Shown in pieces: positions 18,274 through 62,318 of a stretch of DNA of 64,000 nucleotides. The notes beneath the pieces are model-generated. The model made no database searches, was not told where the DNA came from, and was given only the letters and a program-made list of their open reading frames with translations. Source of the stretch: Patescibacteria group bacterium (GTDB lineage: Bacteria > Patescibacteriota > JAQUNI01); NCBI GenBank assembly GCA_028717685.1, contig JAQUNI010000001.1, positions 399,451 through 463,450 of the forward strand, read 5' to 3'. Numbering within the stretch: the stretch's first letter is position 1; each line of letters begins with the position of its first letter. A program made the translations under genes and the position numbers.

Positions 18274-18312
18274 TCCTCCCACCCCCTCCATCTCCCCCTC
18301 GGGCAGGGGGAG
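18274..18312 (+). repeat. GC-rich dispersed repeat, family R (TCCCACCCCCTCCATCTCCCCCTCGGGCAGGGGGAG)
   Basis: Near-identical copies at 35191-35226, 45129-45165, 45271-45312, 45735-45774, and 62262-62318 (inverted). Contains the hairpin CTCCCCCTC-GGG-CAGGGGGAG. Confidence 0.8.
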
Positions 18313-18415
18313 TGCAATCTCCTCACGGAATGGCTCTTGCGTTACGCGTTATATGTTATAAGTTACACGAAGATGTGCTAAAATAAATTCACCCCTAATT
18401 CATGCTTCCTGATTT

Positions 18416-18970
18416 ATGCTTCCATTCAAAAACCAAGAAAAAAAACTCGTCAAAAAAGCCCAAAGGGATCCTGAAGCCTTTGTGGAGCTTTATAATTTTT
18501 ATTTTCCCAAAATCTTCCGCTTTGCCGCTTACCGCGTGAGCAGCCTTGAGGATACGGAAGATGTGGTGGCGGATATTTTTGAAAAAGCTTTGAAATACCT
18601 CTCCCGTTTCCGCTGGAGGGAAAACGCTAACTTTGGCTCCTGGCTTTTCCAAATCGCCCGCAATACCATTATTGACTATTACAAAAAAAACTCTCGCGGG
18701 CGGTTGGTAAACCTTGCGGATTTGCCCGAAATCGCCTCCCACGAAATCCTACCTTCCGACGCGGTAAAGCGCAAAGAAGGCTTCCAAGAACTGCAAAAAT
18801 TAGTAAATACACTGCCCGCTCGGCAAGCCGAGATCGTCGCTTTGCGTTTTTTTGCTGAAAGGCGGAATAAAGAAATAGCCCAAATCCTCAAGATCTCGGA
18901 AAAAACCGTCGCCTCTAACCTCTGCCGCGCCCTGCGCACTCTCCACCGCCGTTACCAAAATTTGCAGTAA
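18416..18970 (+). CDS. ECF-type RNA polymerase sigma factor (sigma-70 regions 2 and 4)
   Basis: Region 2 (FPKIFRFAAYRV...DVVADIF) and a region 4 HTH (EIVALRFFAERRNKEIAQILKISEKTVASNL). Confidence 0.8.
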   Translation: MLPFKNQEKKLVKKAQRDPEAFVELYNFYFPKIFRFAAYRVSSLEDTEDVVADIFEKALKYLSRFRWRENANFGSWLFQIARNTIIDYYKKNSRGRLVNLADLPEIASHEILPSDAVKRKEGFQELQKLVNTLPARQAEIVALRFFAERRNKEIAQILKISEKTVASNLCRALRTLHRRYQNLQ

Positions 18971-19006
18971 TTAAACTAGCAACCTTGTTATAATATATAT
19001 AAACTT

Positions 19007-19621
19007 ATGTCTAAAAAAAATAATCCTGTGAACCCCGTTGGATGTTCACTATCTAACGGAGCCGACAGAGTCAACAATCAAAGCCTTTTAAATGAGATTG
19101 AGAAGATGCTCTCCGCGCCGCAAGGTCGGAATCACCTTAAGAATAATGCCTTGCTCGGTTTTTGCGCCCGACTTATTGCCACGCGACCTGAAGCGCGCGA
19201 TAACTACCGCCAATATCTCAAACAAAGGCTCTCTGCGCTATACCCTCGGAAACGGAAGATAGACTGGAAACAAAAAATAGCGGCTTTGCGCCTCCTCCCA
19301 TTGCGCCAGCTATTTACATTAAGGACAGCGTCTCTCTGCCTCTCCCTGATTTTACTTATTGTCCTCGGAGTGATAAATGGACAGAACCCCTTACTCCAAA
19401 AAACTTCCGAGGTTTCTTTAAGCCCAAGAACCATAGATAATGCCGCGCTCTCGGAAACAGACCGTATCACCCCCGTGAAAAAAACTTTGTTTTTAACCTC
19501 GGAAAAAATAAACTCCGAAAAAAATTACCGCGTCCTCAAAGAATATCAAGAATTTAAACTCATAGAATACACCCTTTTTGACGGCTCTAAAATTATTGCC
19601 GTAAAAAACATCTTGCTTTAA
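19007..19621 (+). CDS. putative anti-sigma factor / membrane protein downstream of ECF sigma
   Basis: Single TM helix (LCLSLILLIVLGVI). The call rests on position after the sigma gene. A TGTTATAAT extended -10 lies immediately upstream. Confidence 0.4.
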   Translation: MSKKNNPVNPVGCSLSNGADRVNNQSLLNEIEKMLSAPQGRNHLKNNALLGFCARLIATRPEARDNYRQYLKQRLSALYPRKRKIDWKQKIAALRLLPLRQLFTLRTASLCLSLILLIVLGVINGQNPLLQKTSEVSLSPRTIDNAALSETDRITPVKKTLFLTSEKINSEKNYRVLKEYQEFKLIEYTLFDGSKIIAVKNILL

Positions 19622-19744
19622 GGGGAACATCCCGAGAAATAAACCTCACAGAAATAAAAACACCTTTATTTAAGGGTGTTTTTATGTTTTGTAATTTAAA
19701 ATTCCAATTCCAAAATCACAAATTCTAAATAAACTTGAGTTCGA

Positions 19745-19832
19745 ATCGGGAATCAGGAATCATGAATGAGGAATTGAATTTTATAATTTATTCTTCTTTA
19801 TTCCTGATTCATAATTCATAATTCATGATTCC
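19745..19832. repeat. AT-rich palindromic element, family D copy
   Basis: GGGAATCAGGAATCATGAATGAGGAATTG ... TTCCTGATTCATAATTCATAATTCATGATTCC. Confidence 0.7.
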
Positions 19833-19837
19833 AGAGA

Positions 19838-20122: not shown

Positions 20123-20126
20123 AAAA

Positions 20127-20777: not shown

Positions 20778-20785
20778 ATAAAAAT

Positions 20786-21339: not shown

Positions 21340-21458
21340 AACAAGTTCAAAATTCAAAGTTCCCGCCTGCCATCACCTGCTGGCGAAGCCAATGGCGGGC
21401 AGGCAAAATTCAAAGTTACAATTTCATTTACAATCAACTTTAAACTTTGCACTTTGAA
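21340..21458. repeat. AT-rich palindromic element, family E (word CAAAGTTCAAAGTGCAAAG) with GC-rich core GCCTGCCAT...ATGGCGGGCAGGC
   Basis: Related copies at 25812-25980 and 63178-63268. Confidence 0.7.
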
Positions 21459-21465
21459 CTCTTAA

Positions 21466-22530
21466 CTAAACCCCTTCCATCCCCCTTAAAGCTAAGCCTA
21501 TAGCCGTGGCATAGCCCAAAGAATCCTTACGGCTAACTTCCGGCAAATACTTGCTCTTGGGGGCTAAGATATTCACCCAAGGATCCCCTAAAACAACTTC
21601 CTTTTTTAAAATTATCTTGAGCTCTGGAACGAGGCCTTTCAATTTCGCGCCACCGCCGCAAAGAACCACCTTGCTTAAAATTTGCCCTTGGGGAAAATGA
21701 TCTTGGTAGAATCTCAATGCCGTTTCAATTTCTCGAGCTAAAGCCTCTAACCCCCCTTTTAAACTTTGATAAATCTTTGCCTCAATCCCGCTCTCTTTCG
21801 CGTTCAAACCATAAATTTTTTTCATCCCTTCGGCTTCGGTTATGCTGATTTTTAAATCCCGCATCAAGTTATTGGTAAAAGTTTCGCCCGCCGGCTCCAC
21901 GGAGGCTGTAAATTGGAGAGTCGCGCGGTCATAAATAATCAAACTGGTCCGGCTAATGCCAATATCCACAAGAAGATAACAAGCATTATCTCCTTCGCGA
22001 ACGAGACTGCGCGCGGTAGCCGCTGATTCCACCTCGCAAGCAATAGGAATGAGATCTGCTCTCCGTAAAACATTGATATAGCTGTCCACCAGTTTCTTGG
22101 GCGAAGCGGCGACTAAGACCTCTAAATGATCAGGGGATTCGCCCACTTTCTGCCAATCTAAATAAACCTCGCTGCCGGAAAGCGGAATGTGCTGTTCTGA
22201 TTCCCATTTGACCGCCTCCGCCAATTCCTCTTCGGGCAAACGAGGTAATTTAATAATCCGCACAAAAGATTCATATTCTGGCACACAAGCAACCACAAAC
22301 CGAGTTTTTATCCTGCCTTTACGCGCCTTTACCCTGCTCTCATTTATTGCCGCAACCAAAAGATCTTCCTTCACCACCCTGCCCTTAATAACCGTCCCTT
22401 CCTGCAAAAGGAATTCACAAAAATTAGAAAGTTCAATATTTTTTCCTTCTCTTTTTAGTTCAATCAATTTTAAACTTTGATCCGAGAGATCTAAACCAAA
22501 AGCATGCATTGAATAAATCTTAAATCTCAA
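21466..22530 (-). CDS. pilM: type IV pilus assembly ATPase-like protein PilM
   Basis: Actin-like ATPase fold, with blocks FGLDLS...LKLIEL and GGG...KGL typical of PilM. Confidence 0.85.
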   Translation of the reverse strand: MRFKIYSMHAFGLDLSDQSLKLIELKREGKNIELSNFCEFLLQEGTVIKGRVVKEDLLVAAINESRVKARKGRIKTRFVVACVPEYESFVRIIKLPRLPEEELAEAVKWESEQHIPLSGSEVYLDWQKVGESPDHLEVLVAASPKKLVDSYINVLRRADLIPIACEVESAATARSLVREGDNACYLLVDIGISRTSLIIYDRATLQFTASVEPAGETFTNNLMRDLKISITEAEGMKKIYGLNAKESGIEAKIYQSLKGGLEALAREIETALRFYQDHFPQGQILSKVVLCGGGAKLKGLVPELKIILKKEVVLGDPWVNILAPKSKYLPEVSRKDSLGYATAIGLALRGMEGV

Positions 22531-22619
22531 AAGTCAAAAGGCAAAAGTATAGTAGAAATAGAAGACTTTTAACTTTTACCTTGCAGATTTACCTTTTGAG
22601 ATTTAACTTTTAACTTTTT
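22531..22619. repeat. AT-rich palindromic element, family F (word AAAAGTCAAAGG / CCTTTTGACTTT)
   Basis: A second copy lies at 29088-29174. Confidence 0.65.
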
Positions 22620-23913: not shown

Positions 23914-24507
23914 TCATCTTAAATTGCGTCCGCAAACACCCGTTAAAAAATCCACCTTCTCTTCCAAAGAGAGAGCGGTAAGCATAATATGCACCAGCCT
24001 GTCTTCCCCCCAAAATATTAAATGATCAATGTATTCCGCTATAACCTCATCGGCATCTACCGCTTTTTCCGCGCTATGGCCAAATTCATCTACCGCGCTC
24101 CAGACCACCCACGAGTCCGGGTCAGCGGAAAAATAATAATGACTGCGCTCACGATGCAAACTGCCGTCCAGCACATAGTAACGAATATATTGTATAGGCT
24201 CCAGGGTATGACCGTCTTGGAACATAATCTCCGCCGGCGGGGGACTATCCGGGTCATCGGAAACAGGAGGCAGATCGGTCACCAATTCTTGAGATTGCCG
24301 CAAATCACGGGTGATGCGATCCAGGGCGACGCGACCGTTTTGGGCTAATTCCACCTTTTTGTTTTCTTTCTCCGTAAAGCGCAAAGCTAAATCATAAGAA
24401 GCATAGGCAAGTAAAACAACAACTAAACCTACACTGATAGCCACTAAGATTTCGGCTAGCGTAAAACCTTTTTGGGAATTTAAATTAACCATTTTACGAA
24501 TTTTCAA
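23914..24507 (-). CDS. type IV pilin-like protein (prepilin N-terminal methylation motif)
   Basis: ...NSQKG|FTLAEILVAISVGLVVV, a class III signal with G-1/F+1/E+5. Confidence 0.7.
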   Translation of the reverse strand: MKIRKMVNLNSQKGFTLAEILVAISVGLVVVLLAYASYDLALRFTEKENKKVELAQNGRVALDRITRDLRQSQELVTDLPPVSDDPDSPPPAEIMFQDGHTLEPIQYIRYYVLDGSLHRERSHYYFSADPDSWVVWSAVDEFGHSAEKAVDADEVIAEYIDHLIFWGEDRLVHIMLTALSLEEKVDFLTGVCGRNLR

Positions 24508-24636
24508 TTTCTAATTTTCAATTTTTATTAAATTTCTAATGATTTAATTTTTAAACTTCCTTATTAAGAAATGAGTGTTTGAAAATTGATTCATTGAAAA
24601 TTTAATAGAAATTAGACATTGAAAATTAAAAATTAA
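24498..24636. repeat. AT-rich palindromic intergenic element, family A copy
   Basis: AATTTTCAATTTCTAATTTTCAATTTTTATTAAATTT ... AAATTTAATAGAAATTAGACATTGAAAATT. Confidence 0.8.
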
Positions 24637-25047: not shown

Positions 25048-25126
25048 TATGGATTTACATCCGTGGCGTTCCAACGCGGGGGTAAAGGCGTAATTATGTT
25101 TATTGGACATAAATTATGCTAATTGT

Positions 25127-25251
25127 TCTAATTGACCTAATTGTTCTAAATAATGACCAAACCCCAATGTCTAATGTCTAAAATTTTGGTCATTTCACCA
25201 TTGGTCATTGGGATTTAGTTAGAAATTAGAAATTAGAACAATTAGAATAAT
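25127..25251. repeat. AT-rich palindromic intergenic element, family B (word AATTGTTCTAATTGACCTAAT / ATTAGAACAATTAGAATAATT)
   Basis: Copies at 40733-40890 and 43470-43621 share the arms and a central CCCAATG...CATTGGG core. Confidence 0.8.
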
Positions 25252-25318
25252 TTTAATGGAATCTTGCCGCGCCCGCTCTGGAAGCTTCGCTTCAAGCGAG
25301 GCGGGTTGGCACTTTGGA

Positions 25319-27206: not shown

Positions 27207-27347
27207 GAGAATTTTCAATTTCTAATTTTTAATTTTTATTAAATTTATAATTAACTAATTTTTAAACTTGTGTCAATCAGGAGGTAAGGGTTTGAAAATT
27301 AACTCATTAAAAATTTAATAGAAATTAGAAATTGAAAATTAGAAATT
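27207..27347. repeat. AT-rich palindromic intergenic element, family A copy
   Basis: Same arms as 10907-11044. Sits between pilB and pilC. Confidence 0.8.
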
Positions 27348-29100
27348 ACTCTTTGGTTACCCTCAACACCTCTTCCAGGGTTGTCACGCCCATCTTGGCT
27401 TTGTAAAACCCGTCTTCAATCATCCTCGTCATTCCCTCACTGATGGCTTGCTTTTCAATTTCTTCCGTGGGCGCCCGCTTTGTCGCTAAACTCTGAATAG
27501 CCTCGCTGACTTCCAAAACCTCAAAAATTCCTAAACGTCCTTTATAACCAGTGTTATTGCATTGGGCGCAGCCCCGTCCACGGTAGAATAATAAAGAATC
27601 CGGGGTGATCTTGCTGGACACGATAGCCCCTTCGCGGACCATAATCTCTAAGATTTTCTTCAGATTCACCTCACTCTCCAAATTCTGCCAAGCCGCGCGA
27701 TCAAGATGGAAACTTTCAATACAATTACTGCAAATCTTGCGCACCAATCTCTGGGCGATGATCACATTTAAGGTGGAAGCAAGAAGAAACGGCTCAATCT
27801 TCATGTCAATCAGGCGGGGAATCGCCCCAGCGGCGTTGTTCGTATGCAAAGTGGACAATACCAAATGACCAGTGAGAGAAGAATGAATCGCCATTTCCGC
27901 GGTCTCGCTGTCACGAATCTCTCCCACCATAATAATATCTGGATCTTGCCGGAGGAGCGACCTTAGGCCATTGGCAAAAGTATAACCGATTTTGGGCGCC
28001 ACCTGGCTCTGATTAATGCGGGGCATATGGTATTCAATGGGATCTTCAATGGTGCAAATATTCACCTCGGGAGTATTGAGAATGTTTAGAATACTGTAAA
28101 GCGTGGTAGTTTTACCCGATCCCGTGGGACCCGTAGAAAGAATCATGCCGTGAGGCCGATTGATATTTAATTTGACAATCTTTAAAGCATTGAGACGCAA
28201 ACCCATTTCTTCCATAGTGAACGGCTTGGCGGATTCAAAAAGGAGACGCATTACAATCTTCTCTCCATTAAAAACAGGAATTACGGAAACACGGAAAGAA
28301 ATTTTATATTCCTCATTTTCAATCTTAAACCGCCCATCTTGAGGCAGGCGATGTTCATCAATTTTGAGGTCAGAAAGCACTTTAATCCGCGCCACCACCC
28401 CTGCCAAGATCTTTTTGGGCAGACTCATCACATCCCTTAAAACCCCATCCACCCTATAGCGCACCACAATTTCTCCCTCTAAAGGTTCAATGTGAATATC
28501 AGAAGCGTTCTCGTAGATGGCATATTCCAAAAGCGTGTCCACGATTTTGACTACGGGCAGCTCTTTGGCCATTTTTCTTAAATCCTCGGCGTCTTCTGGC
28601 TCCCGAATGCCTTGTTTGTCAATAATTTCGGAGAATTCTGTTTTCAGGCTCTTGCGATACTGCTTTAAAACTTCACTGATACTGGTAGGTGTCGTCAGAA
28701 AAACCTCAATCTTCATTCCTGTCTTCTTCTCCATAAATTCAATGGTTTGCAAATCCGTGGGGTCTACCATCGCCAGTTTTAATTTCTCTTTGTCTTTCTC
28801 AAAAGCCACTACCTGATAGTTGCGCGCGATCGGCTCGGGAATGGAAAGAAGAACCTCCTTGGGAATTTTTTTCTTCTCAAGATTAACATAAGGAACCTTG
28901 GATGTTTCCGCATAATGTTCTGCTAATACCTCTTCGCTAACCATTCCTTGTTTAACCAGTTCGGCGGCTAAAGTCACCTTATCCTGCTTTGCTTGAAGGC
29001 TGGCCGCGCGAATTTTCTCCGCCGTCACTAAATTATTCTCGGTTAAAATTTTAATCAGTTCTTCGTCTTTGAAAAACATTGAAATAGAGTCAAAGCGCAA
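27346..29100 (-). CDS. pilB: type IV pilus assembly ATPase PilB (GspE family)
   Basis: GSPII_E N-domain, Walker A GPTGSGKTTT, Asp and His boxes, and a tetracysteine motif (CSNC...CAQC). Confidence 0.9.
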   Translation of the reverse strand: MRFDSISMFFKDEELIKILTENNLVTAEKIRAASLQAKQDKVTLAAELVKQGMVSEEVLAEHYAETSKVPYVNLEKKKIPKEVLLSIPEPIARNYQVVAFEKDKEKLKLAMVDPTDLQTIEFMEKKTGMKIEVFLTTPTSISEVLKQYRKSLKTEFSEIIDKQGIREPEDAEDLRKMAKELPVVKIVDTLLEYAIYENASDIHIEPLEGEIVVRYRVDGVLRDVMSLPKKILAGVVARIKVLSDLKIDEHRLPQDGRFKIENEEYKISFRVSVIPVFNGEKIVMRLLFESAKPFTMEEMGLRLNALKIVKLNINRPHGMILSTGPTGSGKTTTLYSILNILNTPEVNICTIEDPIEYHMPRINQSQVAPKIGYTFANGLRSLLRQDPDIIMVGEIRDSETAEMAIHSSLTGHLVLSTLHTNNAAGAIPRLIDMKIEPFLLASTLNVIIAQRLVRKICSNCIESFHLDRAAWQNLESEVNLKKILEIMVREGAIVSSKITPDSLLFYRGRGCAQCNNTGYKGRLGIFEVLEVSEAIQSLATKRAPTEEIEKQAISEGMTRMIEDGFYKAKMGVTTLEEVLRVTKE

Positions 29101-29174
29101 AAGTCAAAGGTTAAAAGTAATATAAAAGACTTTTAACTTTTGAGTCGCAGTTTTACCTTTTGCCTTTTAACTTT
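29088..29174. repeat. AT-rich palindromic element, family F copy
   Basis: AAAGCGCAAAAGTCAAAGGTTAAAAG ... CTTTTAACTTTTGAGTCGCAGTTTTACCTTTTGCC. Confidence 0.65.
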
Positions 29175-30755
29175 TTATTTTCGATGATTCCGAAAAATCA
29201 GGCTTTCTTCCGTCATCTCTTGAGGCTTTTTAAAACCCAAATAGTCCAAAATTGTCGGCGCAATGTTAGCTAGTTTCCCTCTCTTTTTAAGCCTCATCTT
29301 CTTGCCTCTGCCAAAATCAGCCAAAATCAAAGGCACGGGGTTGGAGGTGTGAGTTGTTAAAATACTGCCTGTTTTGAGATTAATCATTTCTTCCACATTG
29401 CCATGATCGGCGGTAATCAGCATTGTGCCTTTCATTTTTTTCACTATGCTTGCCAGCCTCAACAATTCCCGGTCCAGAAACTCCAAAGCGAAGATCGCCG
29501 CTTTCAGATTTCCTGTGTGCCCTAACATATCAGGGTTCGCATAGTTTAAGACCACGAAATTCGCGAGCATACCCTTTAAAGACGCGAGCACCTTATCCGT
29601 TACCTCTCGGGCTTTCATTTCCGGCTGCTCTACGTAACTTTTTACCCGCAAGGAGGGGATCCTCACTCGCTCTTCCCGATCCACGGGCTTGGAAAAGCCT
29701 CCATTCAAAAAATAAGTGACATGGGGAAACTTTTCAGATTCGGCAATATAAAGCTGATGATAGTCTGAATTCTGGCCCACCACATTCGGCAGAGTTTTAT
29801 AAAACAGTCTCCCGGGGTAGGCAATTAAAGCGTCGTCTAAACCCGGGCCGAATTCCGTCATCGTCACAAAACATAAGCCCTTCAAGACCTTTTTGCGCTT
29901 AAATCCTCTGAAACCTTCCTTAATAAACGCCTCGGTAATCTGTTTAGCGCGGTCTGTTCTTAAATTAAAAAATATGACACCGTCATCGTCCTCAATTAAA
30001 ACAGGCGGCGAGTCTGTAACCACAGTAGGGGGTATAAACTCATCCGTGATTCCTTGAGTGTAATAGTTTTGCACCATCTGCAAAACATTGCTTGTTTTTT
30101 CTCCAATACCCAGGGTTAAATTGTCATAAACCATCTCCACTCTTTCCCAATCGCGAATGCGATCCATCGCATAATAACGACCGGCAATACTGACAATTTT
30201 GCCTATTCCCATCCTTATCATCCGCGCCTCTAAATTCCTTAGGTATTCCAGAGCGGAGATAGGGGGCGCATCGCGTCCGTCCGTAAATAAATGAAGATAA
30301 ACCTGGCGCAAACCTTCTTTTTTTACCAAGTCCAGAAAAGCATAAAGATGGCGCTGGTCCGCGTGGGCGCTCTGCGCTCCCGTCAAAAGACCAAATAAAT
30401 GCAACCGGCTATTCTTGGCTTTAACATAACGAATGGCTTGGAGGAAAGCTGGGTTTTTAAAAAAAGTGCCGTTCGCGATAGAATCATTGACGACCACTGA
30501 ATCTTGCTTCACGATCCGCCCCGCACCTATATTCGTATGCCCCGCTTCAGAATTGCCAACCTGCCCCTTGGGAAGACCCACGGCGAGACCAGAGGCGCTA
30601 AGAATAGCGCGCGGATACACGGCCCACAAATGATTGAAGTAAGGAATCCGGGCTTGCCGCACAGCATTGCCTTTTTGGTTCCGAGATAAACCCCAACCAT
30701 CTAAAATCACTAAAACAAATGGCCGCAGAGCAGGAGACATTTTATCCTTACCCAT
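29175..30755 (-). CDS. gpmI: 2,3-bisphosphoglycerate-independent phosphoglycerate mutase
   Basis: The N-terminus (VLVILDGWG) and later blocks are conserved for iPGM. 526 aa. Confidence 0.9.
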   Translation of the reverse strand: MGKDKMSPALRPFVLVILDGWGLSRNQKGNAVRQARIPYFNHLWAVYPRAILSASGLAVGLPKGQVGNSEAGHTNIGAGRIVKQDSVVVNDSIANGTFFKNPAFLQAIRYVKAKNSRLHLFGLLTGAQSAHADQRHLYAFLDLVKKEGLRQVYLHLFTDGRDAPPISALEYLRNLEARMIRMGIGKIVSIAGRYYAMDRIRDWERVEMVYDNLTLGIGEKTSNVLQMVQNYYTQGITDEFIPPTVVTDSPPVLIEDDDGVIFFNLRTDRAKQITEAFIKEGFRGFKRKKVLKGLCFVTMTEFGPGLDDALIAYPGRLFYKTLPNVVGQNSDYHQLYIAESEKFPHVTYFLNGGFSKPVDREERVRIPSLRVKSYVEQPEMKAREVTDKVLASLKGMLANFVVLNYANPDMLGHTGNLKAAIFALEFLDRELLRLASIVKKMKGTMLITADHGNVEEMINLKTGSILTTHTSNPVPLILADFGRGKKMRLKKRGKLANIAPTILDYLGFKKPQEMTEESLIFRNHRK

Positions 30756-34627: not shown

Positions 34628-34909
34628 CTACTGCTTCTTCACAGCATCCTTCAGGCTCTTACCCGCCTTGAATTTCGGAACGGTCACAGCCGGAATGGAA
34701 ATTTTCTCTGTTGGTCTCTGGGGATTCACGCCCGTTCTCGCTTTGCGATGAGACACTTTGAAAGTGCCGAAACCGGTCATAGTAACTTCTCCGCCGTCCG
34801 CCAAAGTCTTCGTTACAATCTCCTCAAAAGCCTCCATCATTTCTTGCACTCGCGCTTTCGGAATTTCGGTTTTGGCCGCCATTTTTTCCACGAGTTCTTG
34901 TTTTTTCAT
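34628..34909 (-). CDS. hup: DNA-binding protein HU
   Basis: 93 aa with the characteristic GFGTF/GFGNF arm (MTGFGTFKVSHRKARTGVNPQ). Confidence 0.9.
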   Translation of the reverse strand: MKKQELVEKMAAKTEIPKARVQEMMEAFEEIVTKTLADGGEVTMTGFGTFKVSHRKARTGVNPQRPTEKISIPAVTVPKFKAGKSLKDAVKKQ

Positions 34910-35015: not shown

Positions 35016-35190
35016 GCCTTAATAGGGAAGAAACGAAATATGGGGGGTAAAATCATACGATTTCAGAATCAAACAGAGTATTTTTTATTTTTTGTTTCTT
35101 ATTCATATATTTATGAAACTTCCATAAATATTCCTCCCCTTTGGAAAGCGGGAGGCTTAGGAGGGGTTCTGAAAGTTTATCAAGTTTATC

Positions 35191-35226
35191 TCCCACCCCC
35201 TCCACCTCCCCCTCAGGCAGGGGGAG
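35191..35226 (+). repeat. GC-rich dispersed repeat, family R copy
   Basis: TCCCACCCCCTCCACCTCCCCCTCAGGCAGGGGGAG. Confidence 0.8.
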
Positions 35227-36070: not shown

Positions 36071-36135
36071 GAATAATAGTAATCAGTAATTAGTAATCGG
36101 TAATTGGTAATTAGTAATTGGTAACTTATAACTAA
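36066..36135. repeat. AT-rich palindromic element, family C copy
   Basis: AGTAATCAGTAATTAGTAATCGGTAATTGGTAATTAGTAATTGGTAAC. Confidence 0.65.
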
Positions 36136-36177
36136 TTAATCTAAATCACCATTTCCAATTATGAGCCGCGAGTTACC

Positions 36178-40890: not shown

Positions 40891-40985
40891 TGGAGGTGAA
40901 GGGATAAAGTATATCACGGTGAATACCGTGGCTTGAATTCCCAAAATAATTTTCACATTTTGATTTGTTATTTTACATTTTTCAC

Positions 40986-43621: not shown

Positions 43622-43625
43622 CCAC

Positions 43626-44681: not shown

Positions 44682-47600
44682 ATGGTAAAAAATACGGAAG
44701 GCGAGGGGGAAGAAGCGCCTTTAGAAAAAGATAAGGGGCGAAAAAAAAGAAGAGAGGTAAAAAATAAACACAAAAACAAATCAGAGCCCTTGGACCCTGA
44801 CGAGGAAAAAGATATTCCAGAGGAAACGGAGAAAAAGAAAGGAATTACCCCCGATAAAGTGCGGGCGATTTTAGATAATTTAGGGCGAGAATTGCCTCCG
44901 GAAAAATTGGAAATCATGACAAAGGGAGGAAAGGAAATTACGGTGCGCTTTCATCCTGATCTCGCGGAAAATAATTTTCCGGGTTTAATTTCCAAATTAG
45001 AAACCGAGAAGGGCGTTAAAATCATTCCTAAATGGGATGATGGAGTGGACATGGAAAAGGGGTTTGTGATTGTGTCCGAAACAGTCCCTGAAAAGCCAGA
45101 AACGGCTTTAGAACCAGCGGAGCAAGAGCTCCCACCCCCTCCATCTCCCCCTCTGGCAGGGGGAGAGCCACTCCCACCCCCTCCAAATACAGAAAAAGAG
45201 CAAAAGACCCCAGACGGGAACACCCCCGAAAAAAGCGCTAGCGAACCAGAGGAAAAAGGCAATGGAGAGCCACTCCCACCCCCTCTTGCCTCCCCGCTCG
45301 AGGCAGGGGGAGAAGAATCTCTTTTAGAAGAGATCAAATCTAAACAAGAAGAAACCGAGCCTAAACAGAAAGAGGTAAAGATTGAGGAGGTTATTTTGGA
45401 AAAAACGGCGGCAAAGACCGAGACAGAAAAAAAAACAGAAAAAAAAGAAATCCCGCCGCGGGTTCAAGAAGTTTTAGACCGCTTAAACGCGGAGTTGGAA
45501 AAGCATAACGATGTAGAGGAAGTTAATGTTGTTTTTAATTATAAACTGGCAAATAGCCCCCTGGGTGCAGATATTAAAAAGCTCCGACCCCAAAGCTACA
45601 AAAAAATTCAAATAATCAACTATTGGAAAGAAAAAGGGGGCGTTTTTCCTCTTGGTTTTATAATTGAAGAAATAAAAAAGGGGAAATCCGAAGAAAAAGA
45701 AGCAACCCCCGAAAAAAAACCCGAGGAAAAGCCGCTCCCACCCCCTCTTGCCTCCCCGCTCGAGGCAGGGGGAGAAGAATCTCTTTTAAAAGAAATCAAA
45801 TCTAAACAAGAAAAGACCAAGCCCCCACAAAAAACAGAAGAAAAGAATGTCCCTCCGAAAGAAGAAAAAAAAGAAACAGAAATTCCTCAAAATGTGGAAG
45901 TATTACTTTCACTCTTAGATTCAAAAATAGCCGAATTTCAAACAGCCCATCCAGAAGTAAAAGACATTGACATTCTTTTTAGCGAGGAACTTATAAAAAA
46001 ACTGGGGGTAGAATATGGCGATGAAAAACAACAAGCAATCTGGCAAAAGATTGACTCCATCAAAGAAAAAGGATTCAATGTGCTAAATCGTATTTTTGAA
46101 GACAAGAAGATACCCGAAGAAGAGGCGGTAAGGATTGAGAAGGTTGTTTTGAAAAAAGCAGGGGCAGAGACCAAAACAAAAAGAAAAATAACCCCCACGG
46201 AAAAAGGCGAGATAAAGGAAGAGCCTTCCCGGGAAAAAACCACTCCCACCCCCTTTAACTCCCCCTCCCTCCTTCGTCCGCCAGAGGCGGACTTCGGCGG
46301 GCAAGCAGGCAGGGGGAGCGCCACAGAAAAACCGCGAGAACCAATATTCGCGGCGCGGAAAACAGAGGATAAAACGAAAGGACCCAGAGCAGATGAGGAG
46401 AAGCAGAAACCGGGCAAAGTGGCGCGAGAGGCAGAGACCCTAATGGAAATACAACCCTCTCCATCCCGCGTGTCAGAAGAACGGCTTACTGAAAAGCGCA
46501 AAGAATATTTAGAAGCCAAAAGACTGCGCGGCAAATTTATTGGCCGCGGCGAATTTAAAGGCAAAGAGGGAGAAGCGAAACTTGCTCAAATCGGTGAAGA
46601 ATATAGCAAAATGCGCGCTGAATACATTCGCGGCAAAGCGTCAGAAGTATTGAAAGAACAGAAGCTGCCCGCGACGGAATTGAAAACAAAGGTCGTGGAA
46701 AAGCTTCTGGAAGAATACAACAAAGAGGACGGGGAACGGGAAAAATTGATTGTGGGCAGGGAAAAAGGCTTAGGGCAGAGGTTTAAAGAATGGTGGCGCC
46801 GCCATCCTAAAGCGCGAATGCTCGTTGGTTATGGCTTAACCGGCGCTTCGGTAGGGAGTATGCTTTCAGGGCAGCTCTGGCTGACTCCTTGGCTTATCGG
46901 CGCCCGAGCCGCTTTTGCAGGGACGGGCGCGGCTCTAGGCACCGAAGGGATGTTATCCCGCTATTCTAAAACCTTAGGCGAAAAAGGGCTTGTGAATGAG
47001 TTAGTTAAATTTAACAAAGAAGAAAAGGCTAAGCTCAAAAAAATCAAAGACAAAGGAGAACAGGAAAAAGCGCGCCAAAAAATGATTAACGATAACATTG
47101 CTAAAATCTCGCCCGAGAATTTAGCGCGCGAAATGGGGCGCGTCAAAGCCCTGCAAGAGAAAAAGGGGGTAAAACTAGAGAAGATAGGACCATACGGCGC
47201 AGTGCTTTCGGCTCTCCGGGCGCGGGAGCAAGAGCTTTTAAAGAAACGGATAACAGAAGCAATGGAAAAAGGAGAAAAGACTAAAGAAGATTTGCTTTTT
47301 GAAGCTATAAACTCCGGTTTGGAAAGAGAAGCAAGGGAAATGGACGAAAATGTAGAAAAGGCGGGAGAGGCGGAAAGAAAAAAGGCAATCAAAAGGTGGG
47401 TCTTCAGCAGTAGCGCCGGAGCAATCACAGCCGGACTCACCGCTTGGTGGGGATTTCACAGGCTTGGAGAAATTTCAGGCAAGGGAAAAATAGCAGGGAG
47501 CGCGGCTCACGCAAAAACGGCTCTGGGTCCGCCAGCGCCAGAGGGGTTGGCAAAAAATTTTGAGGTTGTTGCCGCCAAGGGCGACTCGGTCTGGAAAATG

Positions 47601-48449
47601 GCAAAGCGCGCTTTGGCGGAAAAATATGGCAGCCGCTTTACCAATCTTGACGAAGCGCGCCGCACTTATGTCATTGACGCCGTAAAAGATAAAATCGCGA
47701 AAAACCCCGCGCGTTTTGGTCTAATTGATATAGACAGGGTAAAAATTGGCCAAAAAATAGATTTTGGCGGATTAATAAATAATAAGAGTTTAATGGAAGA
47801 AACCTTTGGCAAAGCGGGACGTCTAACGGGAGAACAAGCAAAGAATATTTTAATCAATAATGAGACAGTGCAAGAATTTCACCATCTCCATCCGGAAATT
47901 CGGTTGGACAGCGAAAATATAGATTCAATTTTGGCAGGCAGAGGGAGAGAAATCCTGGGAACGGAACCCGCGGCGGCGCAGACAGATATCAGCGCGCCAG
48001 AAATTGCTCCCGAAGAAACCCCGAGCTTGGAAGAAAGCGCGATTCCTACTGAAACTGAAGCTGCAAAAACAGAAACGCCGCAGATAGAAGAGACGCAAAG
48101 TCCAAAGACGGAAACCCCTTCTCCGGAAGTTGCTCCAGAGCAAGATATATCCGAAGCAATGATTCAAGAAATTCCCGACTGGACTCCGGAAAAGATTGCC
48201 AAGACCACTCTGCCCTTGATTCAAAAAAATCCAAAACTGAATACGGTCAAGGGAATTTTAGAACATTATCTAGCTAATCTAAAAAACGGCGAGATTTTTT
48301 TACCCGAGCAAGAACAAGCCAATACTGCTATCAAAGAAATAACTAAAAGAACCGAGGGACTCGGAGAGAGCGTGGCGGAAAGATACGAAAAAATCCTGTT
48401 GGAAAACACCAAAGTTTTCATAGGCATTGCCACGATGGGGAGAGAATAG
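44682..48449 (+). CDS. giant Lys/Glu-rich repeat protein with central TM segment and C-terminal LysM-like motif
   Basis: 1255 aa. The repeat PPPLASPLEAGGEESLL(E/K)EIKSKQE occurs at least three times, each copy encoded by a GC-rich family R element. A hydrophobic region lies at 46795-46960. LysM-like GDSVWKMAKRA...IGQKIDF near the C-terminus. Confidence 0.7.
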   Translation: MVKNTEGEGEEAPLEKDKGRKKRREVKNKHKNKSEPLDPDEEKDIPEETEKKKGITPDKVRAILDNLGRELPPEKLEIMTKGGKEITVRFHPDLAENNFPGLISKLETEKGVKIIPKWDDGVDMEKGFVIVSETVPEKPETALEPAEQELPPPPSPPLAGGEPLPPPPNTEKEQKTPDGNTPEKSASEPEEKGNGEPLPPPLASPLEAGGEESLLEEIKSKQEETEPKQKEVKIEEVILEKTAAKTETEKKTEKKEIPPRVQEVLDRLNAELEKHNDVEEVNVVFNYKLANSPLGADIKKLRPQSYKKIQIINYWKEKGGVFPLGFIIEEIKKGKSEEKEATPEKKPEEKPLPPPLASPLEAGGEESLLKEIKSKQEKTKPPQKTEEKNVPPKEEKKETEIPQNVEVLLSLLDSKIAEFQTAHPEVKDIDILFSEELIKKLGVEYGDEKQQAIWQKIDSIKEKGFNVLNRIFEDKKIPEEEAVRIEKVVLKKAGAETKTKRKITPTEKGEIKEEPSREKTTPTPFNSPSLLRPPEADFGGQAGRGSATEKPREPIFAARKTEDKTKGPRADEEKQKPGKVAREAETLMEIQPSPSRVSEERLTEKRKEYLEAKRLRGKFIGRGEFKGKEGEAKLAQIGEEYSKMRAEYIRGKASEVLKEQKLPATELKTKVVEKLLEEYNKEDGEREKLIVGREKGLGQRFKEWWRRHPKARMLVGYGLTGASVGSMLSGQLWLTPWLIGARAAFAGTGAALGTEGMLSRYSKTLGEKGLVNELVKFNKEEKAKLKKIKDKGEQEKARQKMINDNIAKISPENLAREMGRVKALQEKKGVKLEKIGPYGAVLSALRAREQELLKKRITEAMEKGEKTKEDLLFEAINSGLEREAREMDENVEKAGEAERKKAIKRWVFSSSAGAITAGLTAWWGFHRLGEISGKGKIAGSAAHAKTALGPPAPEGLAKNFEVVAAKGDSVWKMAKRALAEKYGSRFTNLDEARRTYVIDAVKDKIAKNPARFGLIDIDRVKIGQKIDFGGLINNKSLMEETFGKAGRLTGEQAKNILINNETVQEFHHLHPEIRLDSENIDSILAGRGREILGTEPAAAQTDISAPEIAPEETPSLEESAIPTETEAAKTETPQIEETQSPKTETPSPEVAPEQDISEAMIQEIPDWTPEKIAKTTLPLIQKNPKLNTVKGILEHYLANLKNGEIFLPEQEQANTAIKEITKRTEGLGESVAERYEKILLENTKVFIGIATMGRE
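45129..45165 (+). repeat. family R GC-rich repeat copy inserted in-frame in CDS 44682-48449
   Basis: CTCCCACCCCCTCCATCTCCCCCTCTGGCAGGGGGAG. Further in-frame copies at 45271-45312 and 45735-45774, and a degenerate one at 46243-46320. Confidence 0.8.
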
Positions 48450-48454: not shown

Positions 48455-48660
48455 CCTCTTTTCTCTGTTGGCTCCATAGTCCCGAGCGGAAGCGAGGGCT
48501 GTGGAGCCATAATGCTTCATAAAGACCCCCTCCAGAACCTCCCCTCACCCCTCCTTGGAAAGGAGGGGATAATCAGAACCCCCTCTTCGCTCCCCCTTTA
48601 AAAGGGGGAGATAGTATGTCCTCCCCTTTCCAAGGGGAGGGTGGGAGGGGTCTAAAAATA
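48455..48660. repeat. composite GC-rich repeat island (modules GTTGGCTCCATAGT, CCCCTCCTTGGAAAGGAGGGGATAAT, CCCCCTTTAAAAGGGGGAG)
   Basis: It shares modules with the islands at 51165-51360 and 58330-58640. Multiple GC hairpins sit in an otherwise AT-rich context. Confidence 0.7.
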
Positions 48661-48677
48661 CCACATAAAAAAAATAA

Positions 48678-48718
48678 GCCCAGAGTCAACGTATGATGTT
48701 GAACTCTGGGCTTTTTGG
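48678..48718. terminator. bidirectional intrinsic terminator between convergent genes
   Basis: GCCCAGAGTCAAC-GTATGAT-GTTGAACTCTGGGC flanked by A-run and T-run. Confidence 0.7.
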
Positions 48719-51078: not shown

Positions 51079-51164
51079 GGATTTTTACCTGAAAATCCAA
51101 AGTAATCCAGATTTTGGCTAAAATAAGGCACAAATGGAATAGGGAATTAGGAATCATGAATCAG

Positions 51165-51360
51165 GGATAGACCCCCTCCCCGCCCGCCATCGCTTCGCTC
51201 AGGCGAGGCGGGCGGGCACCTCCCCCTTCCGCCCAAGGCGGACAGGCAGGGCAGGGGGGAGTGAGAATCTTCCCCTCCTTGGAAGAAAGGAGGGGATAAT
51301 AAATCCTCCCCTCAACCCGTGGGAGGTTTTTTAAAAAGGGGTCTCTAATAATTCTGCGGA
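51165..51360. repeat. composite GC-rich repeat island (modules GCCCGCCATCGCTTCGCTCAGGCGAGGCGGGCGGGC; CCCCTCCTTGGAAGAAAGGAGGGGATAAT)
   Basis: Shares modules with 48455-48660 and 58330-58640. Confidence 0.7.
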
Positions 51361-57199: not shown

Positions 57200-58228
57200 A
57201 TGAGAACAGTCAGGGTGATTGTCGTTATTGTAATAATACTTTTACTAGCCGGCGGAGGAGTATATCTCTTCTGGCCTAAGACCTCTGAAACGAATACTTT
57301 GGATCAGGAGCTAGCAGATTTAAAGGCTGCAAACGCCACTCTGGTCACGGAAAAGACTGAAACCGCAAATAAAATTTCCGAACTGGAGAAGGCAAAAAAA
57401 AGCCTGACCGAGGCTAATACCACATTAACCAGTCAGGTTGCAAATCTAGCTGGCGATCGTGATGCAATAAAGCAAAGCGAACTTTACTTTGCCAAGGTCT
57501 ACCGCGAAGGACTAGCTGTAAACGAAAAAGCCAATAAAGATAATGGAGTATTACGCAAAGAAATTGAACGGCTTAAAGCGGAAAATAAACAGCTAGTGGA
57601 GGACAATAAACTCCTGCAAACTCAATATAATGAACTCCTCACAGAAAAGAAAGCAGCCGAGGCAGCGAGAAAAGTTGCGGAAGATAAAGTGGCTGGTCTA
57701 AACAGAGATATTGACGCCGCAAAGCAAGGACAAGATGCCGCGGAAATGAAAGCAGTAAAAGCCGAACAGAATCTTACGAGGCTAGAAGCGGAAAAGGCAA
57801 AAGCGCAAAGCGAAATGGTGACCTTGAACGCTAAAATCGCTAACGATTTGGTGGATAAAAAGGCGCTTCAAGATCAGCTTGACACTGCCAAAAAGGCGCT
57901 GGAGGCGATGGAAGGACGGCTGGGAGAGTCTGACAAATTAGTCGCTAAATCACCGACGATGGATACGGTAAAGGAAAACTTGGCTCTAAAAGCCGAAATT
58001 AGATTCCTTTATGCGACAATCCTCGTGGCTACCTCATCCGAGAAGAATCTCTCGGACGAAAGCAGAAGAAAGGCGACTAACCTGATGGTTAGGTTGACCT
58101 ACCAATCAGACGCGGATCTGCGCTTTAAAGCGGCTGCCAAAGTTATGGAAGAAATGCCACTAGATGGCGCCGAAAGCGTTGACCAGCTCCACACACGTTG
58201 GGGAGCCTGGAGAAAAACGCAAGAATAA
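57200..58228 (+). CDS. membrane-anchored long coiled-coil protein
   Basis: GAAAGGATGG SD. N-terminal TM helix VIVVIVIILLLAGGGVYLF. About 280 aa of Ala/Lys/Glu coiled coil. Confidence 0.6.
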   Translation: MRTVRVIVVIVIILLLAGGGVYLFWPKTSETNTLDQELADLKAANATLVTEKTETANKISELEKAKKSLTEANTTLTSQVANLAGDRDAIKQSELYFAKVYREGLAVNEKANKDNGVLRKEIERLKAENKQLVEDNKLLQTQYNELLTEKKAAEAARKVAEDKVAGLNRDIDAAKQGQDAAEMKAVKAEQNLTRLEAEKAKAQSEMVTLNAKIANDLVDKKALQDQLDTAKKALEAMEGRLGESDKLVAKSPTMDTVKENLALKAEIRFLYATILVATSSEKNLSDESRRKATNLMVRLTYQSDADLRFKAAAKVMEEMPLDGAESVDQLHTRWGAWRKTQE

Positions 58229-58329: not shown

Positions 58330-58640
58330 GGAGAAATGAAAAGTGAAACCCCCTAAATCCCCTTTATCAGGGGGATTTTAATTTCTTCCTTCTGTGACCC
58401 ACGCGCTCTAGGAGAGAGTTGTTGGCTCCATAGTGGCGTTAGCCCTATGGAGTCAGGATGCAAGCCGTAAAGAAAAAATATGATCAGACTTTAATGCTGT
58501 TTCGCATTGCGGCTCCACAGCCTGCCCGCCATCGCTTGCGCTTCAGGCGTTAGCGGGCGGGCCCCTCGCTTCGCTCGGGGACTATGGAGCCAACAGACCC
58601 CCTCCAACTCCCCCTTGGTAAGGGGGAGTGAAATCAAGCC
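58330..58640. repeat. composite GC-rich repeat island with 14-nt outer inverted arms GTTGGCTCCATAGT / ACTATGGAGCCAAC enclosing about 146 nt
   Basis: Arms at 58421-58434 and 58581-58594. Inner modules CCTGCCCGCCATCGCTTGCGCTTCAGGCGTTAGCGGGCGGGC. Flanked by hairpins CCCCTTTATCAGGGGG and CTCCCCCTTGGTAAGGGGGAG. Confidence 0.7.
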
Positions 58641-58693: not shown

Positions 58694-59029
58694 TTATGAA
58701 AATAAGGCGCGGATTGAAGGAAAATTGACTCTTATAGTCGCTGCGATGTAATAGACTGAATAGGCAATGGCAACAACTACATAGCAGGTACTAATAACCT
58801 TGGGTCTTGCCCAAGATCTTTTAAGAGCCAATTCTGCAATAAAAACGGGAATGAACAAGAAAATAAACATTTTCACGGCTGCAAAAAGGGTAACCCCTCC
58901 TTGAGCCAAAGACCATTTCAGGATAGGGTTTGTCTCCTCGCAAACCCCCGTGGTGATGCCGATTACGGTGGTAAGAAGATCCACCAGACCGATTAAAAGA
59001 ACGATTTTGCCATATTTACTGATTTTCAT
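58694..59029 (-). CDS. hypothetical small membrane protein
   Basis: 111 aa with 3 TM helices. A TTGACA-17-TATTAT promoter lies on the minus strand at 59107-59135. Confidence 0.5.
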   Translation of the reverse strand: MKISKYGKIVLLIGLVDLLTTVIGITTGVCEETNPILKWSLAQGGVTLFAAVKMFIFLFIPVFIAELALKRSWARPKVISTCYVVVAIAYSVYYIAATIRVNFPSIRALFS

Positions 59030-60898: not shown

Positions 60899-61052
60899 AA
60901 AATAGAAATTTCTAATTTTAAATTTTCAATTTCTATTAAATTTCTAATGACTAAATTTTCAAACCCCGTTAGAAATGAAAAATTTCTAAACGGGGCAAAC
61001 AGTTTAAAAATTAATTCATTGAAAATTTAATGAAAATTGAAAATTGAAAATT
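60899..61052. repeat. AT-rich palindromic intergenic element, family A copy carrying an internal CCCCGTTAGAAAT...ATTTCTAAACGGGG hairpin
   Basis: Arms AATTTCTAATTTTAAATTTTCAATTTCTATTAAATTT ... AAATTTAATGAAAATTGAAAATTGAAAATT. Confidence 0.8.
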
Positions 61053-61059
61053 TTTCAAA

Positions 61060-61530
61060 TTACGCCCTGCGAATTGCCTTTACTAATAAAATCACTACTC
61101 CTGCAACAATCATTATATCCGCGACATTAAACACCGGCCAAAATGCCAAGTTCAAATAATCTATCACATAACCAAAGCGGAGGCGGTCAAGCACGTTAGA
61201 GAACGCGCCTGCTCCCAACAGCACTAAACCGCAAAGAGAGGAAAAATCTTTTTTTTGCCAAAATTTCCGCCCCCAGTAATATAAAAACACGCAAAGCAAT
61301 GCCGTAATTAAATAAAAAAACACGACAGACCACGCGCCATCGCTGGACGGGGCGGGCAGGGGAATCCCGAAAGCAATGCCGTAATTACGGTAAAATTCCA
61401 AAGAAAAAAAATGACCTAAAATAAAAAAATTGGGTCTGCCCGCGAGAACATAGCCAGCCCAATTTTTTAAAATTTGGTCTAAGATGAATAACCCTCCCGC
61501 CAGTGCAAAACACCACTTAAGTTTGCGCAT
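61060..61530 (-). CDS. lspA: lipoprotein signal peptidase (signal peptidase II)
   Basis: 4 TM segments, with conserved Asn/Asp blocks (...FNVADI...). Confidence 0.85.
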   Translation of the reverse strand: MRKLKWCFALAGGLFILDQILKNWAGYVLAGRPNFFILGHFFSLEFYRNYGIAFGIPLPAPSSDGAWSVVFFYLITALLCVFLYYWGRKFWQKKDFSSLCGLVLLGAGAFSNVLDRLRFGYVIDYLNLAFWPVFNVADIMIVAGVVILLVKAIRRA

Positions 61531-61631
61531 AAAAATATAGGAATGAGTAAAACGTAATGGATAATGTGTAATTTATCAGCCTGCAACCCACTATTCTCTT
61601 ATTGCGCATTACGGGTATTACGCATTGCACA

Positions 61632-62093
61632 TCATTTCTTCTGCGCGCATTCTAAACAAATCGGCGCCCTCGGAAAAACCTCCAACCTTTTTGGATTGAT
61701 CGGCTGCGCGCATTTTTCGCAGATGCCATAAGTGCCTGCCTTCATTTTGGCTAGGGCATTGTTAATCTTAAGCAGGTCCACCTCCAGAGTGCCATGCAGC
61801 GCCAACCGATCATAGTATTCAGTCACCTCCATCGCGTTTTCATCAGGCTTAGTGCCGAAAGAGGGGAATTTAGCGTCATAATCACCCTTTACCTTTTTAT
61901 CTTTAACCGCGATTTTCTTTAATTCCTTCTCAAGCTCTTTTTTGTCTTGCTCTAATTTCTTCCTTAATTCCTTGAGCACCTTTCCTTTTAATCCCGCATT
62001 TTTAGGCTTCTTATCCTTATTGCCTAAGATATCGGGAAATTTTGGTTTAGGAATTTTAGTAAAATCTAGTTTGGGGATCTTGGGGAATTTCAT
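61632..62093 (-). CDS. DksA/TraR-family C4 zinc-finger protein
   Basis: C-terminal CEKCAQPI...CLECAQ four-Cys zinc finger, plus an N-terminal coiled coil. Confidence 0.7.
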   Translation of the reverse strand: MKFPKIPKLDFTKIPKPKFPDILGNKDKKPKNAGLKGKVLKELRKKLEQDKKELEKELKKIAVKDKKVKGDYDAKFPSFGTKPDENAMEVTEYYDRLALHGTLEVDLLKINNALAKMKAGTYGICEKCAQPINPKRLEVFPRAPICLECAQKK

Positions 62094-62261
62094 AAAATTA
62101 GTTTTTTATTTTTAGTCCTGCAACCTTAATCTAAGTTTATAATACCCGACAAGAAAAGGCAAGGATTAAATTTTTAATTTTTAATTTTCATTAAATTTTC
62201 AAGAAATTAATTTTTAAACCTCTTTTATTTCCTAATTAGTATAGGTTTCTTTAAATTGCGA

Positions 62262-62318
62262 AACCCACCCCCCCCCCCTGCCTTGAGCGGGGAGGCAAGA
62301 GGGGGTGGGAGCTCCAAT
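62262..62318 (-). repeat. family R GC-rich repeat copy (inverted orientation)
   Basis: Reverse complement reads GGAGCTCCCACCCCCTCTTGCCTCCCCGCTCAAGGCAGGGGGGGGG. The 78-aa ORF 62225-62461 translates through it and is probably spurious. Confidence 0.75.

Follow-up and report, generated by a model that had tools for sequence, protein, structure and literature searches.

What kind of element are the short GC-rich hairpins that recur along a 64,000-nt stretch of a Patescibacteria group genome (contig JAQUNI010000001.1, positions 399,451 to 463,450 of the forward strand; here, the window)? An earlier note listed seven copies of such a repeat, which we call R, and direct reading of the sequence finds all seven, with coordinates that are exact or a few bases off; the one given as an inverted copy at 62262-62318 is confirmed as a reverse complement at 62274-62311. 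The recurrence is beyond chance, as the segment CTCCCACCCCCTC, allowing up to one mismatch, has 8 matches in the window versus 0.05 expected from 100 dinucleotide shuffles, and the hairpin core CTCCCCCTCNGGCAGGGGGAG has 4 versus 0 expected. GC contents of 0.70 to 0.76 are in keeping with the ~75% given for the elements, although the window as a whole is 42.5% GC, and not 35-40%. We propose that R is probably a sub-family of the G/C-rich intrastrand triplex motif repeats (the BoxC/PIT/TMECO class), behaving as a small selfish or neutral insertion element with a fold that promotes local instability. What we observe directly is the architecture, the over-representation, the mirror covariation, gain and loss at orthologous sites, residence in frame within genes, and a wide range among Patescibacteria.

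The architecture is more elaborate than a hairpin. R is 37 to 40 bp long and consists, in order, of a first segment (seg1, CTCCCACCCCCTC), a spacer of ~3 nt, and a hairpin whose pyrimidine arm precedes the loop and the purine arm. Comparison of many variants from related genomes shows that seg1 repeats the pyrimidine arm in mirror orientation and not directly: stems with CCTCCCCT are paired with a seg1 of CCCCTCC, CCCCTCCT with CC(T/a)CCCC, and TCTCCCC with CCCCTCa. Among asymmetric stems without a G5 run at related loci, a perfect third segment is of the mirror kind in 55 and of the direct kind in 10, which rules out seg1 as a direct repeat of the stem acting in an alternative-hairpin switch. 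This mirror relation of seg1 to the stem makes the G-rich strand compatible with a class II purine-motif intrastrand triplex and the C-rich strand with class IV. On the G strand (37 nt, CTCCCCCTGCCCGAGGGGGAGATGGAGGGGGTGGGAG), the triplex reading of R is CTCCCCCT-gcccg-AGGGGGAG-atg-GAGGGGGT, with GAGGGGGT as the antiparallel third strand of G, A, and T. Eight triads are possible in one of the two sub-variants (v1, described below), six of them G.G-C, one A.A-T, and one T.A-T. The base facing the stem A is A in 174 cases, T in 172, and C or G in 14 (A/T 346 versus 14), as the purine motif permits; loop 2 is 3 nt long in 117 of 169 elements, and the hairpins are pyrimidine-first in 268 instances versus purine-first in 65. 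Folding with ViennaRNA predicts Watson-Crick pairs only. A pyrimidine-motif RNA triple helix on the C-rich strand was also considered as the main form, and is retained solely as a complementary reading, since five successive C+.G-C triads are unfavorable at neutral pH and the T/A freedom at the stem A fits the G-strand purine motif.

To count such motifs we used a scanner modelled on the published intrastrand triplex (ITxF) rules, which required perfect stems of 7 bp or longer, or of 6 bp or longer with merging, and took first-order Markov-chain shuffles as the control. The window has 9 class II loci with stems of at least 7 bp compared with 0.04 in the shuffles, and 12 merged class II loci at the lower stem threshold compared with 0.0, covering all seven copies listed earlier. 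Over 567 kb of related low-GC loci, the count is 160 for class II and 18 for class I, with zero in the shuffles. The hallmarks of ITxF elements are found together: a homopyrimidine/homopurine hairpin, a mirror third segment (set off by a loop of 1-6 nt, G facing G and A or T facing A) with no mismatches in the seven listed copies and in five further loci, and over-representation. The earlier list lacks the copies at 58596-58628, 48578-48610, 17325-17352, and 51172-51262; it also lacks a seg1 standing alone at 45171-45183 and the sister sub-family members at 48537-48568, 48620-48651, and 35133-35165.

The earlier note called the copies near-identical, which not all of them are; two sub-variants, v1 and v2, differ in stem and loop. 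The v1 copies (18276, 35190, and 45129) have a 5-nt loop and a stem (CTCCCCCT/AGGGGGAG) that is 8 bp long rather than 9 bp, and the v2 copies (45273, 45735, and 62274 on the minus strand) have a 6-bp stem (CTCCCC/GGGGAG) and an 11-nt loop.

Four of the R copies (45129, 45273, 45735, and 46243) lie in frame on the plus strand within a single open reading frame (ORF; 44682-48449, also on the plus strand) that codes for a 1255-aa protein with no Pfam family match. The v1 copy at 45129-45165 is translated as LPPPPSPPLAGGE and the v2 copy at 45273-45312 (CTCCCACCCCCTC, TTGC, CTCCCC, the 11-nt loop, and GGGGAG) as LPPPLASPLEAGGE; the third, a v2 copy at 45735-45774, is part of an internal 126-nt duplication (45246-45371 and 45708-45833, 85% identical). 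The fourth (46243-46318) carries a nested GC hairpin in loop 1 and is an intact element (-40.8 kcal/mol, z -3.7), where a degenerate one had been reported. It is translated as TPTPFNSPS...GRGS, such that a frame other than that of LPPPPSPPLAGGE and LPPPLASPLEAGGE is used within the same protein. A solo seg1 (CTCCCACCCCCTC, plus strand, no hairpin) at 45171-45183 is also in frame, contributing PLPPPP. The N-terminal half of the protein is Lys/Glu-rich with internal repeats of ~154-170 aa, the C-terminal two-thirds are conserved, and there are hydrophobic Gly/Ala-rich segments at about residues 715-755 and 905-925.

The sole ortholog of this protein found among 5.8 billion clustered proteins (P0002, Ca. 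Doudnabacteria, locus L121; 77% identity by BLASTP, 84% in the alignment) shows turnover of the copies between orthologous sites. Differences between the two genes coincide with the elements, and all of the indels are multiples of three. The 45129 copy is present in the ortholog in decayed form with its stem broken, and the adjacent solo seg1 is kept; the 45273 copy is absent, leaving a clean 36-nt gap at which no target-site duplication is clearly seen; the 45735 copy is absent as part of an 81-nt gap; and the 46243 copy is present in a short canonical form, 39 nt shorter, with a seg1 of CTCCCTCCCCCTC (T for A). Just downstream of the gene, an intergenic cluster (48527-48651) has three elements in the window versus five in L121, and the terminator next to it is 100% conserved. 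Retention of the terminator while the cluster differs argues against a terminator role for the elements and for their rapid turnover.

R is also widespread beyond this contig. A scan of species-representative genomes for seg1 gave at least 120 loci; among the matches listed, 71 of 120 contain the full R (seg1 plus hairpin), mostly in Patescibacteria, with metagenome-assembled genomes (MAGs) of the Andersen-, Doudna-, Uhr-, Magasanik-, Buchanan-, Falkow-, Kaiser-, Cerri-, and Saccharibacteria types as sources. Seg1, both stem arms, and the loop are near-invariant across distant lineages, a pattern in which the identity of seg1 is forced by the search and in which, as the loci were chosen for seg1, the densities and consensus are biased; the loop (T)CGGGC is present in 32 of 74 copies and the spacer is variable. 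Matches in high-GC actinomycetes lack the hairpin and were set aside as chance. Canonical full-length R is also present in two contigs not labelled Patescibacteria, in a Permianibacter MAG (L036, 61% GC) and an 838-kb "Gammaproteobacteria" contig (L106, 62% GC), which could reflect true presence, horizontal transfer, or mis-binning.

Residence within genes is not peculiar to the window. Elsewhere, R is found in long open frames in all six reading frames, and together with the use of different frames of the same DNA within one protein, this identifies R as a nucleotide-level element. Hosts verified by Pfam include class II ribonucleotide reductase, HsdR, GyrB, the CCA-adding enzyme, a class I tRNA synthetase (Ile/Leu/Met/Val type), and LeuRS, which has two copies; PheT hosts R in two genomes, with two copies in one of them, and copies fall inside its B5 and FDX-ACB domains too. 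Across these hosts the inserts are located either inside Pfam domains or in the stretches separating them. The sequence is well suited to reading through, with 31 of 66 R copies open in all six frames and a mean of 5.26 open frames versus 3.49 for random 37-mers. By crude long-ORF gene calls, 102 of 182 elements are inside long ORFs where coding sequence is 84% of the total, so that elements are enriched between genes although far from excluded within them. They have no strand preference, and their orientation to the upstream gene is mixed (25 versus 17).

GyrB provides a second instance of gain. The insert, SPPARGGEAEGVGA, falls in the linker that joins the Toprim domain to the C-terminal tail. 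Neither an 85%-identical ortholog nor any of the other aligned relatives (115 sequences of <800 aa) has it, which shows a lineage-specific gain. The same Lys/Glu-rich linker holds other Pro/Gly/Ser-rich peptides in some relatives, for example, SPLGRGRGGL and SPLLPEEGQGVV (P0042, P0054, P0058, P0068, P0082, P0103, P0104, and P0117). These resemble translations of other hairpin/triplex elements and suggest that independent insertions may have occurred repeatedly at one permissive site.

BoxC repeats were first noted in Escherichia coli in the 1990s, and we know of no agreed function for the BoxC/PIT/TMECO repeats so far. The E. coli BoxC/PIT element TMECO, CCCTCNCCC N3-6 GGGNGAGGG N3 GGGNGAGGG, belongs to the class II purine motifs, is ~37 nt long, and has a 3-nt loop 2 (Holder et al. 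2015, PMC4666352), and G/C-rich class II PIT elements are attributed there to Hoyne et al. 2000. TMECO and R are laid out alike, with a C-rich stem followed by loop 1, a G-rich stem, the 3-nt loop 2, and finally a G-rich third strand, and in both, A or T faces the stem A in the third strand. Each measures ~37 nt and is present in numerous near-identical copies that face either way and are at times clustered or set as inverted pairs, with gains or losses between closely related genomes. They differ in that R has a G5 stem and eight triads (CTCCCCCT/AGGGGGAG/GAGGGGGT) where TMECO has GGGNGAGGG and nine, and R further carries a conserved 5' CTCCC and a loop 1 that is itself conserved. In E. coli K-12, the TMECO copies are reported to be intergenic without exception, whereas R and its sisters frequently lie in frame within genes, and the hosts are Proteobacteria and Patescibacteria, respectively. 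The exact TMECO pattern has no matches in the window, placing R in the architectural class rather than in the TMECO sequence family; in five related Candidate Phyla Radiation (CPR) loci there are six matches, which coexist with R. A literature search with the sequence strings returned unrelated human and mouse primer matches only.

TMECO gives a triplex of high stability in vitro as determined by circular dichroism and nuclear magnetic resonance (NMR), and it is linked to elevated local genomic variability in E. coli, for which transient folding, polymerase stalling, and slippage have been proposed as possible causes (PMC4666352). We suggest a similar course for R. When DNA is single-stranded during replication, repair, or transcription, R may fold into the hairpin or triplex, and the folded element could stall polymerases, leading to local slippage, indels, and gene conversion. 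R would then persist as a small selfish or neutral insertion where it does no harm, in 3' intergenic clusters and in variable protein linkers.

Several observations sit uneasily with this explanation, over and above the seg1-directed choice of loci and the crude gene calls noted above. We found no target-site duplication, terminal repeats, or candidate mobilizing enzyme, so that mobility is argued from presence/absence patterns. The physical triplex data are those for TMECO, with the R triplex being read from its sequence, and v2 copies allow just six triads. TMECO itself has neither promoter nor terminator activity, and its triplex was not detected by dimethyl sulfate footprinting in vivo (PMC4666352). 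Moreover, a triplex geometry leaves unaccounted for the CTCCC extension at the 5' end of seg1, the (T)CGGGC loop, and the near-identity of copies in distant lineages.

The near-invariance of R across distant lineages, including the 5' CTCCC extension and loop 1, suggests a sequence-specific partner, and a possible though distinctly less likely explanation is that R is an undescribed family that is actively spreading in Patescibacteria, with occasional copies in other phyla, and that colonizes essential genes in frame. Its hairpin-plus-mirror fold might then be the substrate of its own propagation, either as the cis-site of an enzyme acting on single-stranded DNA, as in the repetitive extragenic palindromic (REP) sequences with their REP-associated tyrosine transposases (RAYTs) or in IS200/IS605, or as a trigger of templated repair. 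If so, Pro/Gly-rich linkers would be inserted continually into the proteins of minimal genomes.

We regard it as doubtful that the R sequence is itself the recognition site of a conserved trans-acting factor, such as a REP/RAYT-like transposase, a nuclease or recombinase, or a DNA-uptake receptor. Such a factor would explain the near-invariance of seg1, arms, and loop in distant Patescibacteria while the spacer varies, the presence of copies in both orientations and both within and between genes, as with uptake sequences and REPs, and the copies in a few non-CPR contigs (L036 and L106). However, we have identified no candidate protein, and the search pattern itself imposed the identity of seg1. 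There is no exact full-length R in viral contigs, and carriage by phages is accordingly rejected. With 12 merged loci over its 64 kb, the window also has a density of ~0.2 per kb, lower than that of known uptake sequences.

A GC-rich hairpin that works at the RNA level in 3' untranslated regions, terminating transcription or protecting mRNA ends in a REP-like manner with seg1 being incidental, also seems improbable. Several intergenic copies are indeed 30 to 100 nt past stop codons (median 44 nt in tandem contexts) or between convergent genes, the predicted hairpins are stable, and a small sister element at 58355-58378 does have a T tail. The sub-family to which the latter belongs (ACCCCCT-taa-TCCCC(C)T-tatc-AGGGGGA; 17325-17352 and 58355-58378) has a T tract after its copy at 58355 and was flagged as terminator-like, and some members of the wider class may double as terminators. 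The R copies, however, have no T/U tail, with tails such as TGCAATC, TGAGTTT, and GAGCCAC, and none was flagged as a terminator. Furthermore, the cluster at 48.5 kb has a separate bidirectional terminator downstream (48676-48716), which is conserved while the cluster is not; its outer stem is GC-rich and 10 bp long (the predicted fold extends this to 16-17 pairs), both strands have U tracts, and the z scores are -6.3 and -7.7. Neither the mixed orientation to the upstream gene, nor the placement of 102 of 182 elements inside long ORFs, some with Pfam-verified domains, nor the covariation of seg1 with the stem is expected of such an element. PIT elements are described as lacking terminator activity in E. 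coli in work cited by Holder et al. (PMC4666352), and Rfam 15, at its gathering threshold, recognizes four tRNAs in the window and nothing more. The earlier description of a dispersed, nonrandom GC-rich hairpin repeat therefore stands, but not that of a plain hairpin associated with transcript ends or small RNAs, given the integral mirror seg1, the absence of a T tail, the mixed orientation, an Rfam yield of tRNAs only, and the location in coding sequence of more than half of the copies, counted in the window and in related genomes.

It is very unlikely that the selected structure is an intramolecular G-quadruplex (G4) on the G-rich strand, perhaps switching with the hairpin. Certain sister sub-families do match the canonical quadruplex motif (for example, GGGAGAGGG-nnn-GGGTGAGGG), and for TMECO a G4 is possible in principle, although NMR shows a triplex and not a G4 (PMC4666352). 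Yet the R copies tested in the window (18276, 35190, 45129, and 58596) all lack four tracts of three or more G residues, the pattern (G3+N1-7)x4 is matched by only 7 of 96 R-type elements and 33 of all 169 class II elements, and a G4 has no need of the mirror register, a fixed 3-nt loop 2, or a complementary C arm. It is exceedingly improbable that R is a protein-level repeat, with LPPPPSPPLAGGE selected as a Pro/Gly-rich linker motif and the DNA hairpin-like by chance, for while four copies are translated in one protein at the start of its internal repeats and the inserts lie in linkers, identical copies are also intergenic, the loop-length variants keep base pairing and not the peptide, and the heterogeneity of frames (two in one protein and six elsewhere) excludes it.

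The placement of R within the intrastrand triplex class also separates it from other small repeats. As in H-DNA mirror repeats, one strand of R bears a mirror repeat made up of seg1 and the pyrimidine arm, and the duplex could therefore form H-DNA also; unlike those repeats, R has its purine partner in cis as a hairpin arm, which would permit one strand to fold alone, and it is a dispersed repeat family with short tracts of 7-9 nt. The Rickettsia palindromic elements (RPEs), which Ogata and colleagues are said to have described in 2000, are reportedly ~100-150 bp long and AT-richer with no triplex mirror segment, and reportedly occur both between genes and in frame within them, housekeeping genes included, in reduced genomes. 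R and the RPEs are alike in being small palindromic repeats that are intergenic or in frame in coding genes of reduced-genome bacteria, and R behaves as the RPEs do in having in-frame copies that are missing in orthologs (the 36-nt and 81-nt indels, and GyrB). The sequences are probably unrelated, however, and R is GC-rich and only 37-40 bp, making homology implausible. REPs and bacterial interspersed mosaic elements (BIMEs) of enterobacteria and pseudomonads share with R the form of 20-40-bp GC-rich imperfect palindromes in mosaic arrays in 3' intergenic regions, but REPs by definition lie outside genes, carry a conserved 5' GTAG, and are associated with RAYT transposases. R has variable flanks, no GTAG, and many intragenic copies; no search for RAYT genes was made.

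The data show R to be a distinct and highly conserved sub-family within a known class of intrastrand triplex repeats, with in-frame copies in essential genes of Patescibacteria. These ultra-small bacteria have genomes that are among the most reduced known, and in them R is tolerated, or selected, within genes that are essential, among them gyrB, the ribonucleotide reductase gene, and several for aminoacyl-tRNA synthetases. Gain and loss at orthologous sites provide natural experiments on whether triplex motifs drive local instability. R is also a source of annotation artefacts, including spurious small ORFs and odd inserts in conserved proteins, and shared R repeats may create problems in assembly or binning. 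The broader question raised is what copies a 37-nt sequence nearly unchanged across phylum-level lineages.

The other three copies listed earlier are intergenic. The v1 copy at 18276-18312 has its C-rich strand on the plus strand (CTCCCACCCCCTC, spacer CAT, CTCCCCCT, loop cgggc, and AGGGGGAG), and is positioned 34 nt past the stop codon of a TrmB-like gene (17433-18242) and upstream of an ECF sigma gene (18416-18970). That at 35190-35226 (plus strand) is between a YmdB-like gene (35279-36070) and an HU gene (34628-34909), both on the minus strand, so that here the G-rich strand is the sense strand. A sister element (35133-35165), separated from it by 24 bases, has the G-rich class II reading on the plus strand (CCTCCC, loop, GGGAGG, ctta, and GGAGGG). 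The v2 copy at 62274-62311 (minus strand) is 97% identical to 45735-45772 and is intergenic, ~180 nt upstream of a DksA-like gene (61632-62093, minus strand); a 78-aa ORF (62225-62461, minus strand) passes through it.

Three elements form the cluster between the stop codon of ORF 44682-48449 and the canonical terminator. The first is a sister element at 48537-48568 (plus strand; seg1 CCTCCCC, CCCCTCCT, loop tggaa, and AGGAGGGG), followed by an R-like G5 element without the 5' CTCCC extension at 48578-48610 (plus strand; ACCCCCTC, ttcg, CTCCCCCTT, taa, and AAGGGGGAG), and a further sister element at 48620-48651 with its C-rich strand on the minus strand (reading CCTCCCCT, ttcca, AGGGGAGG, gt, and GGGAGGGG on the plus strand). 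A similar R-like element is at 58596-58628 (plus strand; ACCCCCTC, caa, CTCCCCCTT, ggt, and AAGGGGGAG) between convergent genes at 57200-58228 (plus) and 58694-59029 (minus). The small sister element at 17325-17352 (plus strand; ACCCCCT, taa, TCCCCCT, tatc, and AGGGGGA) appears to lie between a promoter-like TTGACA/TATAAT site, as read by eye, and the start of gene 17433-18242. The least certain member, probably R-like, is at 51172-51262 (plus strand), with CCCCCTC, a GCCCGCC hairpin, CTCCCCC, ttccgcccaaggcggacaggcagggcag, and GGGGGAG, and with nested GC hairpins in both spacer and loop.

Other GC-rich hairpin modules adjoin the triplex elements, namely GCCCGCC...GGCGGGC (51186-51218 and 58522-58562) and GGCTCCATAG...CTATGGAGCC (48470-48512 and 58424-58462). 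With several module types recurring side by side, the GC islands are mosaics reminiscent of BIMEs. Long-loop R variants have in common an inner module, ...CCGCC-nnnn-GGCGG-ACAGGC..., at 46259-46318 and 51227-51254 in the window and at loci L003, L113, L042, L052, and L090; the short loop cAGGC/cGGGC may be what a deletion has left of a longer ancestral element, or the inner module may be a second insertion.

The window has two further features of note. The cumulative GC-skew minimum is near 38 kb, between the genes for RNase Y and NusB, and with no DnaA nearby, a replication origin cannot be asserted. There are also several AT-rich or heptamer-periodic intergenic repeats. The first family, which is AT-rich and ~130-150 bp long, has 7-nt periodic units (AATTTTC/AATTTCT/AATTTTT) at 10905-11040, 24498-24635, 27209-27348, 39557-39768, 60906-61060, and 62161-62221, and its units form long inverted repeats with arms that are 81-94% complementary between copies. 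Further heptamer-periodic families are of the GAATCAG type (4672-4720, 19743-19777, and 51137-51171), the GTAATTA type (6012-6130 and 36065-36143), the CTAATTG type (25111-25254, 40730-40891, and 43481-43624), and the AACTTTT type (21431-21470, 22558-22617, 29122-29181, and 63231-63270), and some of these are palindromic pairs flanking genes. The CTAATTG-type repeat matches loci of the related Doudnabacteria genome, too, at 75-85% identity.

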